64,000 bases of DNA. Source: Candidatus Saccharimonadota bacterium. GTDB taxonomy: Bacteria; Patescibacteriota; Saccharimonadia; Saccharimonadales; JACOTW01. Every line of letters begins with the position of its first letter. Position 1 is the first letter of the stretch. The notes under the pieces are model-generated. The model was not told where the DNA came from and made no database searches. It was given only the letters and a program-made list of their open reading frames with translations. Positions 2,113 through 62,473 of this stretch are shown piece after piece. The translations under genes were made by a program, and so were the position numbers. Location: positions 228 through 64,227 of the forward strand of contig JACOTW010000001.1 of the NCBI GenBank assembly GCA_016178135.1. The letters are read 5' to 3'.

Positions 2113-2171
2113 ATATCCTTAGATACGTCGACGGAGAGCAGACAGGTTTTGGACACTTTGGCGCGGAGTGA

Positions 2172-2197
2172 ATTGGTTATTTTGTTTTGGAATGGCT
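2172..2197 (+). repeat. PE-C right-end fragment
   Basis: TTGGTTATTTTGTTTTGGAATGGCTA. Confidence 0.6.
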
Positions 2198-2291
2198 ATA
2201 TAGTGACGCCGAGAAAATATAAACAGTTTGCAGTCAGTTAGACTACGATCTTTTACTGTATGAAAGTGCGAAAGTCCTATAAAGTAAACAT

Positions 2292-12924: not shown

Positions 12925-13035
12925 TTCCGAGTTTTACGTTTATAGACATCACACTCTGATGCCCCATAAAGTCCATGCTCACAAGTAGTGCAAGCCAGCT
13001 ATCCAGCGAACCTGTCAGGGTGAACTGTATCTATA

Positions 13036-13366
13036 CTGGACCTGTCGCAAAGCTCCCCCATCCCCAGACCAATTCATCTCGATTGGTAGCGGTCTGTCTT
13101 CTCTCGATGTAGCAAAGAGCTAATTAACATCTATCTGTCGGCTAAAATCTTCAGGTCTGTCACTTTTATTCTGTTTTTTGTTTTCGGTTCGTACCGATAG
13201 GTACGACCAAAAGCCAAGAAAACAGAATAAAAATCATGACAGCTGCTAAAGATTCGCTATCAACAGATAGATATTAATTAGCTCTAAGGCTACCTCTCCT
13301 TCAGCCAAACCACTCCCAACTCGAGCTGATTTAGCCTGGGAACGGGCGATTTTGCGACAGGTCCAG
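13036..13366 (+). mobile_element. PE-A element (gamma subtype) with nested PE-E
   Basis: TIRs CTGGACCTGTCGCAAA/TTTGCGACAGGTCCAG with flanks TATA/TGTA. Confidence 0.85.
13116..13285 (+). mobile_element. PE-E palindromic element nested in PE-A
   Basis: TIR AGAGCTAATTAACATCTATCTGT / ACAGATAGATATTAATTAGCTCT with a central hairpin GGTTCGTACC-GAT-AGGTACGACC. A second, truncated copy lies at 34046-34182. Confidence 0.8.
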
Positions 13367-13530
13367 TGTAGATACCGAGAACTGAACCAATTCGTCAGAT
13401 AGTCGGATGGTGCTGGTTGTGAGTGCGGAATGGGGGCTATATGTGTATAAAGTGTGAAAGTCGTGTTAGAGATAAATAATTTAAAATAAAGTCGAGCTTT
13501 TTGGTTTGGCTGAGATCGGTATTATTTTCT

Positions 13531-14578: not shown

Positions 14579-14832
14579 CTAGACCAATCGCAAACTCTCT
14601 TTCGGACACGAGTTTCGCACTTTTCCATAGCCCCAGATGACACCTGACAAGCTACAGCCACTCACTCCTCACTCAACATAGGCTATAGCCCAAGCCTCCC
14701 TCGGATTGAACAACTGTAACCAGCCAGCTGCAACCTGGCATCAATGGCTAAGTGCGAAACTCGTGTCGGATAAAAACAGTTTTCGCTCGAACTGATTCGC
14801 CCTGGGAACGACGGATTTCGCGACAGGTCCAG
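14579..14832 (+). mobile_element. Internally deleted PE-A carrying a nested PE-B
   Basis: A degenerate left TIR CTAGACCAATCGCAAA joins directly to the right half ...CTGGGAACGACGGATTTCGCGACAGGTCCAG. It begins 4 nt after the stop of the Ddl-like gene. Confidence 0.75.
14606..14765 (+). mobile_element. PE-B element, full copy
   Basis: TIRs ACACGAGTTTCGCACTT/AAGTGCGAAACTCGTGT with a 3-bp TSD (CGG/CGG). Confidence 0.85.
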
Positions 14833-14876
14833 TATACCGTTACGACAGTTATGGCCATAGGGTGTATTATTAGTTT

Positions 14877-15521
14877 ATGCAAAAGGCGATGTTTGGGGCG
14901 GGGTGTTTTTGGGGAGTGCAGTATTATTTTGACCAAGTACCTGGGGTAAATAAAACTACCGTAGGCTATAGCGGCGGGCATACCAAAAATCCGTCTTATG
15001 AAGAAGTTTGTACGCATACTACTGGTCATGCGGAAGTGGTTGAAATTGAGTTTGACCCAAGTAAAGTCAGCTATGAAACACTTGTAAAACAATTTTTTCG
15101 GATGCACGACCCCACACAATTAAATAGGCAAGGTCCAGATGTAGGCGATAGCTATAGCCATCCCAAAACAAAATGACCATTTTTGTCTGCGCCTGATGAT
15201 CTAAAAACTACTTTTTTGTCTGCAGCATATCTACGGATATGCTTTAGCCAAAGAAAGCTAGTTTTTAGACTCATCATCCATCACTCAAAATTTGGTCATT
15301 TTGTTTTGGAATGGCTATATCGTTCGGCGATTTTTTATTTTGATGACGATCAAAAGCAAATTGCCGGAACAATTAAAGCGACCACGCAAAATAGTTCTGA
15401 AAAGCCCATCGTAACAGAAATAACTCAAGCTATGGAGTTTTACAAAGCTGAAGATTACCACCAAAAATACACCGAACGCACTGGTCGCGGCATGTGCCAC
15501 GTGCCATATAAAGAGGTATAG
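14877..15521 (+). pseudogene. msrA: Peptide methionine sulfoxide reductase MsrA interrupted by a PE-C insertion
   Basis: GCFWGV...[11 protein letters not shown] ends at 15155 and RSAIFYFDDDQKQ... resumes at 15321. The junction matches the conserved GxxYRSAIY. The 165-bp insert is in frame but contains a TGA at 15174-15176. Confidence 0.8.
15155..15317 (+). mobile_element. PE-C element, full copy, inside msrA
   Basis: TIRs TAGCCATCCCAAAACAAAATGACCA / TGGTCATTTTGTTTTGGAATGGCTA with a TA target-site duplication (15153-54 and 15318-19). Confidence 0.85.
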
Positions 15522-15537
15522 CATAGCAACATACAAA

Positions 15538-15559
15538 AAGTGCGAAACTCGTGTATACT
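15538..15559 (+). promoter_or_regulatory. Solo PE-B right end supplying a TATACT -10-like hexamer 7 nt upstream of an ATG
   Basis: The sequence reads AAGTGCGAAACTCGTGTATACT, then 7 nt, then the ATG at 15567. Confidence 0.5.
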
Positions 15560-15566
15560 TCTTTTT

Positions 15567-16454
15567 ATGGCGAAGAAAACTTCTAATAAGGCAAAGATAA
15601 AATCGAAGGTAACTAAGAAAACTAAGACCCGCAAATTAATTACTACTAGTCTGAAAATAACAAGAAAAACCAAACTTGGCTGGGTCAACACTATAGACCA
15701 CAAGCAACTTAGAATACTTCATATATTAAGTGGAGTGTTATTTGTGGTACTTGCCATAGCTGCCGGTACGATTATGAAAACCACTAACTACCAACTGTAT
15801 ACAAGCTACGTTACAAGAGATGAGCTTGCAAGTCGGACAACTACCGTACTAGTGCCAGCGGCGCATAATTTTTATGAACTTGATGTTAGATGGGCCGTGG
15901 TTGTTTTGATGGCTTCAGCTGCTATTATTCCGCTCCTGATGGTTACTAAATTAAAAGATCGTTATCATTCCTGGATAAAGGAAGGTGTTCACCCTTGGCG
16001 CTGGATTGATGTTGCCGTAACTATGGCGTTAACCGTGGGTCTGACAGCACTTGTAAGTGGCGTACAGGATATACTAACGCTGAAATTAGTGGTTGGGCTT
16101 ATTGTTTTGGTGGCTGTACTTGCCTGGCTTTCCGAACGGCAAAATAAAGGGTTAAATAAACCGGTATGGTCGCTGTTTGTAATAAGTTTTATCACTGGTC
16201 TGTTTGTTTGGGCGGTTATTGCGAGTTCGTTTATTAGTACCTATATATGGGGTATGGTGCGTTTTCCGTGGTTCGTGTACGCGGTGGTGACCATGACATT
16301 TATAGGTTTTGGCTTAGCGGCCATCAATCACTACAATTACCTTAGACGTTATGGTAATTGGAAAAATTATATGTTCGTTGAACGTAATTACCTAATCATT
16401 AATCTTGTATCCAAATTTGCTTTTGTCGCCATATTTATTATGGGCTTAAAGTAA
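15567..16454 (+). CDS. Polytopic membrane protein with a Lys-rich N-terminus, unknown function
   Basis: About 295 aa with multiple hydrophobic helices. No recognisable family. Confidence 0.5.
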   Translation: MAKKTSNKAKIKSKVTKKTKTRKLITTSLKITRKTKLGWVNTIDHKQLRILHILSGVLFVVLAIAAGTIMKTTNYQLYTSYVTRDELASRTTTVLVPAAHNFYELDVRWAVVVLMASAAIIPLLMVTKLKDRYHSWIKEGVHPWRWIDVAVTMALTVGLTALVSGVQDILTLKLVVGLIVLVAVLAWLSERQNKGLNKPVWSLFVISFITGLFVWAVIASSFISTYIWGMVRFPWFVYAVVTMTFIGFGLAAINHYNYLRRYGNWKNYMFVERNYLIINLVSKFAFVAIFIMGLK

Positions 16455-18121: not shown

Positions 18122-18921
18122 ACTATAGGGTGGAGCGTAGCCAACCCTATAAACCTGGGCAAAAAACGTCATTTAAAGTGAGCCGATCAAAAATTGAGCT
18201 ATTCACGCAGTGTCAGCGTTGTTTCTGGTTAGATGCTCGGCTTAAGATTAAGCGTCCCAACGGACCGCCATTTCAAATCAATAAAGCCGTTGATGAATTG
18301 TTGAAAAAAGAATTTGACGGTTATCGTTTGAAAGGCAAGGCTCACCCTGTAATGATCGAATTTGGGGTTGCCGCTATTCCATTCGCTCATGCCAGTCTGG
18401 ATGTTTGGCGAACCAATTTTACGGGAGTGGCTACCCTGTATGAACCTGCGAATTTGCAGGTTTTTGGTGCTGTTGATGATATTTGGGTAAATAGCAACGA
18501 CGAACTCATAGTAGTAGACTACAAAGCCACTGCCAAACAAAGCGATGTTACTCTAGATGCCGATTGGCAGATGAGCTATAAGCGGCAGATGGAAGTTTAC
18601 CAGTGGCTATTACGTCAAAATGGCTTTAAGGTGAGCGATACTGGCTACTTTGTTTACGCTAATGGTCGGCTGGATGTTGATGGGTTTTATAACAAAATAG
18701 AGTTTAGAACAAAAATCATTCCATACACCGGAAATGATGCCTGGATAGAGCCAACCCTGGGGAATATGAAAGATTGTCTAGAGGCTGATATGCCACAAGT
18801 CGGTAAGGCTGCCATGGGTGGCGATTGCGATTTTTGTACCTACGCCAGAGCCCGCTCGGAGCTGACAATAGCGGCACTTAACTGGACTTACGCAAAGCTC
18901 CCCCATCCCCAGACCGACTAA
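18118..18921 (+). CDS. PD-(D/E)XK nuclease, Cas4/RecB-like with a 4-Cys cluster; C-terminus and stop derived from PE-A
   Basis: CQRCFW near the N-terminus, DYKATAKQ core, EVYQW, and C-terminal CDFCTY. The last 13 codons (NWTYAKLPHPQTD*) lie inside the PE-A copy starting at 18882. Confidence 0.65.
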   Translation: MNYRVERSQPYKPGQKTSFKVSRSKIELFTQCQRCFWLDARLKIKRPNGPPFQINKAVDELLKKEFDGYRLKGKAHPVMIEFGVAAIPFAHASLDVWRTNFTGVATLYEPANLQVFGAVDDIWVNSNDELIVVDYKATAKQSDVTLDADWQMSYKRQMEVYQWLLRQNGFKVSDTGYFVYANGRLDVDGFYNKIEFRTKIIPYTGNDAWIEPTLGNMKDCLEADMPQVGKAAMGGDCDFCTYARARSELTIAALNWTYAKLPHPQTD

Positions 18922-19040
18922 TCTCGGCTGCAAACAGTTTTTTCTCTCTCGATGTACCTCCCTGGTACCTCTCCTTCAGACAAAACTGTTTTCGCTCGAG
19001 CTGATTCGTCCTGGGAACGAGGGATTTTGCGTAAGTCCAG
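18882..19040 (+). mobile_element. PE-A element (alpha subtype), full copy
   Basis: TIRs CTGGACTTACGCAAA/TTTGCGTAAGTCCAG with flanks TTAA/TTTT. Confidence 0.85.
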
Positions 19041-19067
19041 TTTTAAGCAAGCCAAAAAGCCATCTTG

Positions 19068-21038: not shown

Positions 21039-21100
21039 TTAAAGCATATCCGTAGATATACTGCAGACAAAAATGGTCATTTTGTTTTGGGATGACCATA
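21039..21100 (-). repeat. PE-C left half, reverse orientation, abutting PE-A
   Basis: AAAGCATATCCGTAGATATACTGCAGACAAAAATGGTCATTTTGTTTTGGGATGACCA. The break is at the GCTTTA site, which also hosts PE-D at 37591. Confidence 0.7.
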
Positions 21101-21170
21101 TATATGAGGTACAATAGTCTCACACATAAAGACTGCGAAAACCAACTATTACAGGGAGTTAGGACTTAAA

Positions 21171-25095: not shown

Positions 25096-26184
25096 ATGCA
25101 GGAATTACTAAAAAAAGTAAGTGCTATTAGTGCCGATGTAGCAGACGCTTTTGAGAAATTAGCAATAAATTCGCTCAAAGATGAGCTCTTACATCTAAAG
25201 ACAGCCTCCCAGGAGGCTAATTTTTGGTCAGATAATATGCGTGCCCAGCAGACCATGAAACGTATTGCTGATTTAGGGGCTAGAGTGGATCCATGGATCA
25301 ATCTTGAAAAAAGTTTGCATGATATAAAGGAACTACTGGATACAGAAGATAGCAGCCTGTCTAGTGAGCTAACTGCGCAATTAAATTACTCGGAAAAAAC
25401 TTTTAATGAATTAAAAGCACAACTCAAATTTACCGGTAGGTATGATGATTTCGATGCCATTATGAGTATACATGCTGGTGCTGGTGGTACTGATGCCCAA
25501 GATTGGGCGCAAATGTTGATGCGTATGTACATCCGTTGGGCCGAGCGTTGCCATATGAGCGTAACGGTCATTGAGGAATCTGCAGGAGAGGAAGCGGGTA
25601 TAAAAAGCGTTACTCTGGAAGTTGACGGTAATTTTGCCTACGGCAAGCTCAAAGGCGAACACGGTGTACATCGTTTAGTACGGCTAAGTCCGTTCAATTC
25701 CGACAATCTAAGGCAGACTAGCTTTGCCAAGGTAGAAGTCTCGCCCAAGATAGATAAGCCAGATTTAATAGCTATTGATGATAAAGATCTTAAGATTGAT
25801 GTTTATCGCAGTGGCGGTCATGGTGGTCAATCAGTTAATACTACGGACTCCGCAGTTCGAATCACTCACTTGCCAACGGGGATAGTCGTAGCTATCCAAA
25901 ATGAACGTAGTCAATTGCAAAACAAAGAAACAGCTATGACAATTTTGCGTTCTCGTCTAGCTCAAATGCGGCAAGAACAGCACCTGGAAAATATTGCCGA
26001 ACTGAAGGGGCCAAATGAGCAAGCTGCTTGGGGAAATCAGATCCGTAGCTACGTCCTACACCCCTACAAACAGGTCAAAGATATTCGTACTCGCCATGAA
26101 ACAAGTGATGCGGACGGAGTTCTGGACGGCAATTTAGACCCTTTTATCGACGCTTATATCAAATACAGTTTTGGTCAGGAATAA
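25096..26184 (+). CDS. prfB: Peptide chain release factor 2, uninterrupted frame
   Basis: SPF tripeptide (LSPFNS) and GGQ (SGGHGGQSVN). A single 362-aa ORF with no +1 frameshift site. Confidence 0.95.
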   Translation: MQELLKKVSAISADVADAFEKLAINSLKDELLHLKTASQEANFWSDNMRAQQTMKRIADLGARVDPWINLEKSLHDIKELLDTEDSSLSSELTAQLNYSEKTFNELKAQLKFTGRYDDFDAIMSIHAGAGGTDAQDWAQMLMRMYIRWAERCHMSVTVIEESAGEEAGIKSVTLEVDGNFAYGKLKGEHGVHRLVRLSPFNSDNLRQTSFAKVEVSPKIDKPDLIAIDDKDLKIDVYRSGGHGGQSVNTTDSAVRITHLPTGIVVAIQNERSQLQNKETAMTILRSRLAQMRQEQHLENIAELKGPNEQAAWGNQIRSYVLHPYKQVKDIRTRHETSDADGVLDGNLDPFIDAYIKYSFGQE

Positions 26185-33811: not shown

Positions 33812-33819
33812 CAATTATA

Positions 33820-34182
33820 CTGGACATGTCGCAAAAGCCCCCATCTCCAGACCGACTAACCTTGGTTACAAACGGCTTTTCTTCTCTCGATGTATTCTTT
33901 AAGCTCTCCTTCGGATAAACTGGACCTGTCGCAAAACTCCTCCATCCCCAGATCGAATTCTATCGGCTACTCTTCGAGTCTGAGCCTGAGGGCTCACCTC
34001 AGAGTCGAAGACAAACGGTTTTTCTTCTCTCAATGTAGCCAAGAACTAATTAACATCTATCTGTCGGCTAAAATCTTTAGGTCTGTCACTTTTATTCTGT
34101 TTTTTGTTTTCGGTTCGTACCGATAGGTACGACCAAAAGCCAAGAAAACAGAATAAAAATCATGACAGCTGCTAAAGATTCG
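33820..34182 (+). mobile_element. Stack of truncated elements: PE-A left part, a second PE-A left part with PE-S, and a truncated PE-E
   Basis: PE-A #1 (33820-33919) is cut by PE-A #2 (from 33920). PE-A #2 contains PE-S (33971-34012) and then PE-E (34046-34182), which ends abruptly. No right halves are present. Confidence 0.75.
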
Positions 34183-34207
34183 TAAGCAGTAAATAGGAAC
34201 AACAAAC

Positions 34208-36260: not shown

Positions 36261-36268
36261 TATAGCTA

Positions 36269-36312
36269 TAGCCATCCCAGAACAAAATGCCCATTGTGTT
36301 TTAGCATAGCTA
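36269..36312 (+). mobile_element. PE-C miniature copy (44 bp)
   Basis: TAGCCATCCCAGAACAAAATG...CATTGTGTTTTAGCATAGCTA with a TA/TA duplication. Confidence 0.6.
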
Positions 36313-36445
36313 TAGCCAGAGTTTTCTCATCCACTCATCCCGCGCCACTCTTACATAATTTTTCACCACCCCAGACCAATCCTGTAAAGCAGGATTACTC
36401 TGGAATTGGTGAAAAAGTACGAAAGTCCTATATAATAAATGTTTA

Positions 36446-37544: not shown

Positions 37545-37822
37545 CCTAAAAACTACTTTTTTGTCTGCAGCATATCTACGGATATGCTTTATAGGACTTT
37601 CGCACTTTGTTGCCAATGCCAGAGTGTAGCTGGGTGAGCGAAAACGGTTCAGGTTCTGGAGGGGTAGCCATAGCTACACCGAGAGAACATGGGCCGCTTG
37701 TAGCCACACAGGTTAAGTCTGGTGTGGTAAGAAAGTGCGAAAGTCCTATATAGCCAAAGAAAGCTAGTTTTTAGACTCATCATCCATCACTCAAAATTTG
37801 GTCATTTTGTTTTGGAATGGCT
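37545..37822 (+). mobile_element. PE-C (left TIR missing) carrying a nested full PE-D
   Basis: Colinear with the msrA copy on both sides of the insert. The right TIR TGGTCATTTTGTTTTGGAATGGCT is intact. Confidence 0.8.
37591..37750 (+). mobile_element. PE-D element, full copy
   Basis: TIRs ATAGGACTTTCGCACTTT/AAAGTGCGAAAGTCCTATA, inserted at the GCTT-TA-GCC site of PE-C with TA flanks. It shares the TTTCGCACTTT core with the PE-B TIR. Confidence 0.8.
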
Positions 37823-37851
37823 CTAGGAACGAGGGATTTCGCATAAGTCCA
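37823..37851 (+). repeat. Solo PE-A right-end fragment
   Basis: CTAGGAACGAGGGATTTCGCATAAGTCCAG. Confidence 0.7.
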
Positions 37852-39214: not shown

Positions 39215-39397
39215 TAACGTTATCAGGAATTAAATAGCGAACTGGAGGATATTTTAGTAAAACTACAGTCTGACAGCTTGGATATAGATGAGGCCGTTAA
39301 GTTGCATGAGAGGGGTACGATTATTGTTAAAGAACTTGAGGCGTATCTGAAAAATGCCGAAAACAAGGTTGCCAAGATTAAAGCGAGCTTTGAGTAA

Positions 39398-46685: not shown

Positions 46686-46903
46686 GTCAAATATCCTCAA
46701 ACAGTTTCACGAATATGGGGGCTATAGCTGTGGCTACATCGAGGACAGAAAAACTGTTTGCAGCCCCGCATATGCGGGATGAACTGGGGTGATGAAAAAG
46801 TCCGAAACTCGTGTTAAAGATCATCGGCTCCAAAACCCCCGAATTTGTTTTGCGGTGGCTATAATTCACTCTGGGAACGGGCGATTTTGCGATAGGTCCA
46901 GTA
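46686..46903. repeat. Mosaic of element fragments (reverse PE-A part, a PE-B/D-like end, a PE-G end, a forward PE-A right end)
   Basis: GCTACATCGAGGACAGAAAAACTGTTTGCAGCC...; AAAAAGTCCGAAACTCGTGT; CCCCCGAATTTGTTTTGCGG; CACTCTGGGAACGGGCGATTTTGCGATAGGTCCAG. Confidence 0.6.
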
Positions 46904-46958
46904 AAGATTTTTAGGGTGAAGGGTGTATTATAAAACGGTTATGAGCTTTTTCATTTTA

Positions 46959-47153
46959 CTGGACTTACGCAAAGCTCCTCCATCCCCAGATCGAATTCTA
47001 TCGGCTACAAACAGTTTTTCTTCTCTCAATGTAGCTACTGCTACCTCGCCTTCAGATAAAACAGTTTTCGCTCGAAATAATTCACTCTGGGAACGGACGA
47101 TTTTGCGTAAGTCCAGTTTAGCCTGGGGACGGGCGATTTTGCGACAGGTCCAG
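46959..47153 (+). mobile_element. PE-A (beta subtype) full copy plus the trailing right-end piece of a host PE-A
   Basis: The full copy spans 46959-47116 with TSD TTTA/TTTA. It is followed by GCCTGGGGACGGGCGATTTTGCGACAGGTCCAG. The arrangement is paralogous to 62101-62295. Confidence 0.85.
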
Positions 47154-47179
47154 TTTAGTATGTTTACGGGCGGTTTAAG

Positions 47180-48493: not shown

Positions 48494-48961
48494 ATGAGTA
48501 AAAGACCTCAAAACGCAACATTAGGACAAAAAGCATTATATAACTCTGGCGCCAAACAACTGGGACCTGACCTTACGGCCGTTTTATCCGATACAGAAGT
48601 CCGCAAAGCAGGCGCGGAACGTTATAGTAGAAGGGTGCTTGGTCTTGTAGCTGTGACGGCCCTAACCGCTATGGGTTCGTATGCTGTGAATAGTAAAAGT
48701 AATGAACAGCAGGGAGACATAGTGAACAATCGGCTTAAAAACATAGGAGTAGTAGCCGAAACTACACCCCAGACGTTGCCAACCATTGTTCATGAAGTCA
48801 AGCCGGGCGAGAATCCTCGAAGTATAGCTGATCAATATAACGCTGATCCTGTTGATGCCGATAACATGGCGAACAGCATTCAGGCACGAGATGGTGTTGA
48901 GGCTCCAAACGGTCAGACATATATACATCCTGGTCAAGAAATCAAAATCACTGGGCGATAG
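48494..48961 (+). CDS. Membrane-anchored protein with a LysM-like C-terminal domain; its stop codon lies in a PE-C terminus
   Basis: HEVKPGENPRSIADQYNA...IHPGQEIKI. TATAAT lies 6 nt upstream of the ATG. The stop TAG is the first 3 nt of TAGCCATTCC. Confidence 0.5.
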   Translation: MSKRPQNATLGQKALYNSGAKQLGPDLTAVLSDTEVRKAGAERYSRRVLGLVAVTALTAMGSYAVNSKSNEQQGDIVNNRLKNIGVVAETTPQTLPTIVHEVKPGENPRSIADQYNADPVDADNMANSIQARDGVEAPNGQTYIHPGQEIKITGR

Positions 48962-49030
48962 CCATTCCAAAATGAAATGACTGGTTTTTGAGTGAGTGAT
49001 GGACGACGATAAGTCTAAAAAACTGTTTAG
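48959..49030 (-). repeat. PE-C right half, reverse orientation
   Basis: TAGCCATTCCAAAATGAAATGACTGGTTTTTGAGTGAGTGATGGACGACGATAAGTCTAAAAAAC is colinear with the reverse complement of 15250-15317. Confidence 0.7.
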
Positions 49031-61909: not shown

Positions 61910-61973
61910 AACCATAAGTATACTGGACCTATAGTAAAATCCCTTGAGAGTATACAACACAGTTCGAACTAGA

Positions 61974-62295
61974 CTGGACCTGTCGCAAAGCTCCCCCATC
62001 CCCAGACCAATTCATCTTGGCTGGTAGCGGTCTGTCTTCTGTCGATGTAGCTATGGCTACCTCTCCTTCAGCCAAACCACTCCCAACTCGAGCTGATTAA
62101 CTGGACTTACCCAAAACTCCTCCATCCCCAGATCGAATTCTATCGGCTACAAACGGTTTTTCTTCTCTCAATGTAGCTATGGCTACCTCTCCTTCAGACA
62201 AAACAGTTTTCGCTCGAGATAATTCACTCTGGGAACGGACGATTTTGGGTAAGTCCAGTTTAGCCTGGGAACGGGCGATTTTGCGACAGGTCCAG
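61974..62295 (+). mobile_element. PE-A (gamma subtype) host copy interrupted by a second PE-A
   Basis: The left part ends ...ACTCGAGCTGATTAA and the right part resumes TTTAGCCTGGGAACGGGCGATTTTGCGACAGGTCCAG. It is colinear with the uninterrupted copy at 13036-13366. Confidence 0.85.
62101..62258 (+). mobile_element. PE-A (beta subtype) nested inside PE-A
   Basis: TIRs CTGGACTTACCCAAAA/TTTTGGGTAAGTCCAG (a compensated G/C change in both TIRs) with flanks TTAA/TTTA. Confidence 0.85.
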
Positions 62296-62473
62296 TATAA
62301 AGACCTCTTGTTTGCGACGTCAGGTGCCAACCAGAGCATGTCGTACAGCGATAAACGCGGATCGGTTTTTTTAATCTTCTCAAGGGGTTAATTTTTTTTA
62401 GAGTTGCTTGAGCGGCCACATCGCTAGTGAAGCGTACTTTCTGTTTGCAGACATTTCTAGAGTTATTATTCAT
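62183..62473 (-). CDS. Small CxxC (zinc-ribbon-like) protein whose C-terminal ~37 codons and stop come from PE-A
   Basis: The native part is MNNNSRNVCKQKVRFTSDVAAQATLKKINPLRRLKKPIRVYRCTTCSGWHLTSQ. The ORF enters PE-A at 62295 and runs on to 62183. Confidence 0.4.
   Translation of the reverse strand: MNNNSRNVCKQKVRFTSDVAAQATLKKINPLRRLKKPIRVYRCTTCSGWHLTSQTRGLYTGPVAKSPVPRLNWTYPKSSVPRVNYLERKLFCLKER

Follow-up and report, generated by a model that had tools for sequence, protein, structure and literature searches.

Insertion at a TA dinucleotide with duplication of that TA is a hallmark of the IS630/Tc1-mariner transposons. In the biochemistry of ISY100, the TA duplication was established as the signature of IS630-family transposition (PMC2170065). 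The element that interrupts the msrA gene in the DNA analysed here resembles MITEs derived from IS630/Tc1-mariner transposons in its length of 163 bp, its 25-nt terminal inverted repeats, its lack of coding capacity and its long hairpin, and also in TA insertion and duplication, in nesting and in having mostly intergenic copies. It departs from them in that a cognate transposase with matching ends was not found for it, that it is lineage-bound in the scanned collections, barring two solo ends (L011 and L014), and that its host appears to be a small-genome Saccharibacteria-like bacterium. Compared with ordinary insertional inactivation by an IS or a MITE, the msrA case is alike in being strain-specific, in having an intact empty-site allele in close relatives and in introducing a premature stop, and nothing essential sets the two apart; the sole oddity is an added length divisible by three.

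By preserving the reading frame, the insert recalls the Rickettsia palindromic elements (RPEs), which encode an open conserved peptide frame (PMC10969869). Both the RPEs and the msrA element are palindromic mobile elements of about 150 bp that reside in a housekeeping gene and preserve its frame; however, RPEs have an open frame, are translated and are retained in orthologs, whereas the msrA element has stops in six frames, is predicted to truncate MsrA and is missing from sister strains. Programmed bypassing offers a further comparison, and the known cases, phage T4 gene 60 and the yeast mitochondrial ‘byp’ elements, involve a gap of about 27-55 nt; T4 gene 60 has a stop adjoining its take-off codon and a gap that does not exceed about 50 nt. 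The msrA element likewise forms a hairpin between identical in-frame codons (TAT...TAT), but its gap amounts to 165 nt and no stop stands right after the take-off codon.

In the window, that is, the whole 64-kb stretch of DNA that was analysed, msrA (14877-15521, + strand) is interrupted by the 163-bp element together with a duplicated TA, which make up 165 bp or 55 codons. A sequence-only reading of the window had described this arrangement as msrA split by an in-frame 165-bp insert, and both the structure and its coordinates were confirmed. The 5′ part of the gene (14877..15154, + strand), delineated by its ORF and translation, consists of codons 1-92 plus the TA of Tyr93 and has the same sequence as the intact alleles in the DNA alignment; it holds the catalytic GCFWG motif, so that the active site was rightly placed in the N-terminal fragment. 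The 3′ part (15320..15521, + strand) begins with the third base of Tyr93 and runs from Arg94 to the stop. The borders of the insert are a TA at 15153-54, the element itself (TAGCC...GGCTA, 15155-15317, 163 bp) and a second TA at 15318-19, after which the host sequence resumes at the Tyr with RSAIFYFDDDQKQ. Removing the insert and one TA yields a joined protein of 159 aa, which covers all profile positions of Pfam PF01625 (PMSR; 1-153/153, E = 1.2e-64) and has MsrA structures as its best PDB matches; the continuity of MsrA across the insert, also proposed from the sequence, is thereby borne out.

The added length keeps the frame, but the described TGA 19 nt into the element was found at 15174-15176 (+ strand), and it is the single in-frame stop within the insert. 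The ORF at 14877-15176 reads ...QGPDVGDSY, continues with the element-derived residues SHPKTK and then meets the TGA, ending MsrA after residue 93 and six element-encoded residues. Past this TGA, the msrA frame has no other stop, passes through ...EWLY RSAIFYFDD... and ends at 15521. An uninterrupted msrA ORF is accordingly absent from the filled-allele genome, where the gene is split into ORFs of 99 aa and 112 aa. The C-terminal fragment had been called unstarted; it is indeed split from the N-terminal part, but an in-frame TTG at 15183..15185 (+ strand), 7 nt after the TGA, opens the 112-aa ORF that includes the msrA 3′ part, and the 112-aa gene starting at TTG 15183 is an entry in the gene table of GCA_016196105.1. 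A translation restart at this TTG is conceivable, possible though unproven, and would give two fragments, one of them with 45 foreign N-terminal residues. For annotators, this carries a warning that the 99-aa and 112-aa ‘PMSR’ genes of GCA_016196105.1 are two halves of one disrupted gene.

Searching with the joined protein retrieved an intact 159-aa MsrA (P0001), 100% identical to it, plus a 155-aa version (P0002). The sequence-only reading had suggested comparing msrA among related genomes, and five independent assemblies turned out to carry the uninterrupted syntenic gene: GCA_040960765.1 (654-kb contig), GCA_040960095.1 and the Logan assemblies of SRR25508621, SRR25508638 and SRR25508618. 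In all five (L003-L007), the empty site reads GATAGC-TA-TCGTTCG, which equals the window minus the element and one TA; a single TA thus occupies the target site in every empty allele, in the place of the left duplication copy at 15153..15154, and the comparison with these alleles also sets the right copy at 15318..15319. Gene order is shared between the window and all empty-site contigs, running through the Pup ligase, an RRM protein, a Ddl-like ligase, msrA, heliorhodopsin, DUF5671 and onwards. The sister population is ~99.4% identical in DNA, with the flanking DNA 98.8-99.8% identical to the sister genome over about 40 kb, and the joined msrA differs from the empty alleles at one synonymous site in 480 nt, leaving the MsrA protein 100% identical. 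That site lies 10 nt downstream of the insertion and carries C in 5/5 empty alleles and T in all filled alleles. The 120 homologs listed with lower identities (73-89%) are without exception of normal length for MsrA (152-171 aa), which indicates that intact msrA is ancestral.

The filled allele is present in the window and in GCA_016196105.1, a genome that matches the window over 20.3 kb at 100% identity; its left junction was recovered in a 550-bp contig (L002) of GCA_030841465.1, and its right junction in the Logan assemblies of SRR12113388 and SRR12113417. None of the samples with the filled allele yielded an intact one, and the filled allele may be common and tolerated in them. The insertion is very recent, because msrA is still intact, with a single TA, in the closely identical sister strains and both halves of the interrupted gene are undecayed; recent inactivation, one of the options raised beforehand, is strongly supported by these observations. 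The suggestion that the locus might be an ordinary decaying paralog does not hold, since it is orthologous to, and syntenic with, the intact gene, and no second msrA was found in the 64-kb window.

Whether the TGA within the element ends translation depends on the genetic code of the host. The window encodes release factor 2 (prfB, 25096..26184, + strand), whose product contains the SPF and GGQ motifs, the former being the RF2 motif. TGA also terminates 13 of the 48 long ORFs. An alternative code in which UGA is a sense codon was ruled out by these two observations, and the TGA at 15174-15176 is, on the same grounds, a genuine stop in this host.

The primary product is therewith predicted to be a 99-aa fragment made of residues 1-93 and six foreign residues. 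Such a fragment keeps the catalytic Cys of GCFWG but is missing 66 residues at the C-terminus, which amount to about 40% of the fold. The element entered between Y93 and R94, two residues that do not vary among 30 homologs and that correspond to the conserved QYRS motif in alignments with solved MsrA structures. The Tyr in QYRS contributes to sulfoxide binding. AlphaFold modelling of the intact protein (pLDDT 84) puts the insertion site where a long loop (77-95) ends, immediately ahead of strand 96-99 and not inside a strand; confidence is low for residues 87-92. Were the stop read through, the product would have 55 foreign residues separating two invariant positions in the region of the active site. 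Considering that the in-frame TGA would yield a truncated protein without about 40% of the fold, msrA is most likely inactivated, its loss of activity being deduced from the sequence.

These observations are best explained, with high probability, by a recent insertion of a MITE, specific to one strain lineage, at the TA in codon Tyr93 of msrA, which most likely inactivated the gene. The 163-bp MITE entered the TA within this codon in one strain lineage and duplicated it, adding 165 bp; the TGA 19 nt from the left end of the element would then stop translation after residue 93 and six foreign residues, and MsrA activity would be lost with the truncated product. That 165 bp is a multiple of three is most simply a coincidence with a one-in-three prior, and the preservation of frame is irrelevant because the TGA in the element would truncate MsrA anyway. 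The other genic strain-specific insertion in the window (18881-19043) is also 165 bp long, and both inserts contain in-frame stops; with n = 2, these lengths are no evidence for selected frame preservation.

Other readings of the locus fit less well. A repeat misplaced inside msrA by the assembler is a negligible prospect: it is true that assemblies break at the element, as the 550-bp contig L002 stops midway through the hairpin and two Logan contigs (L030 and L031) begin in the right terminal repeat, but the junctions were recovered independently in five datasets, and both agree with the empty site at every base and show a clean TA duplication. The sequence-only reading had named such an artefact as what would overturn it, and the filled allele in five other datasets or assemblies, including the independent junctions, speaks against this. 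The intact alleles might alternatively be revertants of a reversible on/off switch that works by precise excision, which we hold to be very improbable. Exactly one TA remains in the empty alleles, a state that fits precise excision and a never-occupied site alike. However, the filled alleles carry T and the empty alleles C at the linked synonymous site, the two come from separate sample sets (SRR121134xx vs SRR255086xx), and their genomes are ~0.5% different throughout, which together argue that filled and empty alleles mark separate lineages and not switching variants. Excision would, moreover, be expected to leave a footprint and not to restore the site exactly, and all of the more distant homologs are intact, pointing to the intact state as ancestral.

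The remaining readings seek a functional MsrA from the filled allele. An insert tolerated in the manner of the RPEs, with 55 extra codons translated and MsrA functional with an extra surface module, is extremely improbable. The exact addition of 55 codons with a single stop in the frame used, and the modelled position at the end of loop 77-95 outside the strands, are in its favour; yet a TGA stands in frame in a genome that encodes RF2 and uses TGA as a terminator, no frame is open in either orientation of the element, the invariant QYRS residues Y93/R94 are pulled apart, and the sister strains without the insertion give no sign of retention under selection. The analogy with Rickettsia drawn in the sequence-only reading is therefore not upheld, as the element has stops in six frames, its TGA is a genuine stop and the insertion is not conserved among relatives. 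Expression might also be rescued, either by UGA read-through or by ribosomal bypass from the TAT at 15153-55 to the TAT at 15318-20, which would restore wild-type MsrA; this, too, is a very unlikely course. The two identical in-frame TAT codons lie at the hairpin base, where each completes a duplicated TA with one further base, the element's first base on the left and the following host base on the right, and the 163-nt hairpin would bring them together. UGA followed by C is a weak termination context in E. coli, and the stop here is UGA then C. In-frame stops with apparent read-through have been reported as widespread in bacteria (PMC7918605). On the other side, the codon after the take-off is AGC and the stop comes six codons on, so that the two are not adjacent; the gap of 165 nt is beyond known cases; a matching codon would arise by chance in roughly 1 in 10 TA insertions by our own estimate; and the allele is too young for conservation to be informative. 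The related proposal that a ribosome hop over the 165-nt MITE, or the UGA stop followed by the TTG restart 7 nt on, gives some functional MsrA is highly doubtful; if true, a bacterial chromosome would here have its own equivalent of the mobile ‘byp’ elements known from yeast mitochondria. Nothing in the sequence speaks for the excision or the recoding on which expression was earlier suggested to depend. Even taken together, the exotic readings remain improbable, and insertional inactivation by a MITE is the preferred explanation. The knockout itself is of little import, beyond showing that one population of an episymbiont-like lineage can lose msrA.

The element, labelled PE-C in the sequence-only reading, occupies 15155..15317 as a near-perfect hairpin without an open frame and is absent from the five sister assemblies. 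Its ends, TAGCCATCCCAAAACAAAATGACCA...TGGTCATTTTGTTTTGGAATGGCTA, have a TA on either side. The left terminal inverted repeat (15155..15179, + strand, 25 nt) is TAGCCATCCCAAAACAAAATGACCA, and the right one (15293..15317, − strand, 25 nt) has 1 mismatch to it; the terminal repeat is given by TAGCCATYCCAAAACAAAATGACCA, and the paired arms reach 39 nt at 85% complementarity. Folding predicted a single 163-nt hairpin of −76.4 kcal/mol, compared with −27.5 ± 3.7 for shuffles (z = −13). Stops occur in all six frames, leaving no coding capacity. A search of the protein collection with the peptide encoded by the element, aimed at genes with translated copies, gave no candidates, though it also missed the known 112-aa ORF. 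A simple scan detected no terminator-like signal in the element. A self-splicing intron or structured RNA was considered and rejected, no Rfam family reaching its gathering score anywhere in the window. With its terminal repeats, TA duplication, hairpin, lack of an ORF and multiple copies, the element is a typical MITE, that is, a non-autonomous DNA transposon, and its family is previously undescribed. The clean pair of filled and empty sites at msrA fixes precisely where this new MITE family begins and ends, as well as its TA target.

The terminal repeat (25 nt, ≤3 mismatches) occurs 6 times in the window, against 0 expected, and the 64 kb contain one full copy of the msrA element, one nearly full copy and four fragments. 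The nearly full sister copy (37546..37825, + strand) has lost about 49 nt on the left, and what it retains of the element matches the msrA copy at 99-100% identity. A MITE of a different family, roughly 160 bp in length (~37590-37750), is nested at a TA inside this sister copy and has the ends TAGGACTTTCGCACTTT; this end motif is also present in L011. An internally deleted remnant (21040..21101, − strand), common to the sister strain, retains the centre plus one terminal repeat, and a short palindromic remnant (36266..36315) keeps two degenerate terminal repeats. A diverged end fragment (48958..49021, − strand) is ~77% identical, and a right-end fragment (2130..2201, + strand) combines the same terminal repeat with different inner sequence. 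The latter fragment and positions 4355-4444 of L011 share about 90 nt that end in the same terminal repeat and are ~93% identical. L011 is a distant Candidatus Saccharibacteria MAG with an RRF only 63% identical, and the shared fragment lies upstream of frr in both genomes; it may derive from the end of a parent element common to both, or it may be a fragment that was exapted and conserved.

Outside the window, solo ends were found twice, in L011 and at the end of a metagenome contig (L014), both flanked by TA. The other matches in the terminal-repeat scan of the genome, metagenome and viral collections were almost all chance matches of 17-24 nt, and the source species evidently lies outside the collections scanned. 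From the TA insertion and duplication together with the terminal repeats, we infer that the element was mobilised in trans by an IS630/Tc1-mariner-type transposase. No transposase was found among the long ORFs scanned or annotated in the window, nor did terminal-repeat scans of the genome, metagenome and viral collections, in which the source genome is not contained, reveal a full-length IS with matching ends.

At the level of the whole window, the genome is MITE-rich: repeats make up about 3.9 kb (6%) at 23 sites, and only the msrA copy lies in a gene body, the other 22 being intergenic or at gene ends. Comparison with the sister genome identified at least four strain-specific insertions and one absence. 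The insertions are located at 13121-13284, at 15155-15319 in msrA, at 18881-19043 and at about 47052-47166. The third belongs to another family with the ends ACTGGACTTACGCAAA and is absent in GCA_040960765.1; it lies at a TTAA in a PD-(D/E)XK nuclease gene, 7 codons short of the stop, and replaces the C-terminal tail. Conversely, the window is without 107 bp at 39216/39217 that are present in GCA_016196105.1, otherwise identical, and in the sister genome (L022 617-723, L023 692-796); this absence may reflect a true deletion or may stem from assembly. The missing 107 bp comprise a MITE remnant and codons 1-4 of xseB, the gene for the small subunit of exonuclease VII, and in the window xseB appears as a 39-aa TTG ORF (39278-39397) instead of a 63-aa protein. 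The strain-specific insertions and the 107-bp absence indicate that several MITE families have moved within ~0.5% sequence divergence. A literature search found no published accounts of MITEs in Saccharibacteria or CPR bacteria, and several families moving within such a divergence in a small Saccharibacteria-like genome are a modestly useful observation.

Further MITE-like families, at least 4 or 5, reside in intergenic regions, with ends that share ...GGAC(T/C)T..CGCA... or GTGCGAAA; their sites include 14600-14838, 15536-15554, 13027-13376, 33813-34182, 46816-47158, 61967-62305 and others. The upstream region of msrA contains a full element, and the gap between this gene and that for heliorhodopsin has a solo end. 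The short-read assemblies of the filled-allele genome are fragmented by MITEs, and the two contigs of GCA_016196105.1 that span the window, JACPYE010000014.1 and JACPYE010000010.1, end and begin inside the MITE cluster 33813-34182, at about 33900-34200.

The heliorhodopsin gene (15567-16454) is on the same strand as msrA and starts 45 nt downstream; if the two are co-transcribed, polar effects on it could arise from the early stop in msrA and from the long hairpin there. Heliorhodopsin, DUF5671 and a Pup-ligase homolog are Saccharibacteria-like traits of the window, as is the RRF, 63% identical to that of the MAG sharing the element ends. At the beginning of the window, a GDSL-lipase-domain protein (107-1768) carries an N-terminal phage lower-baseplate (BppL_N) motif and lies in a 2-kb block of 52.7% GC vs ~42% in the rest of the window; this block may be foreign or prophage-derived DNA.
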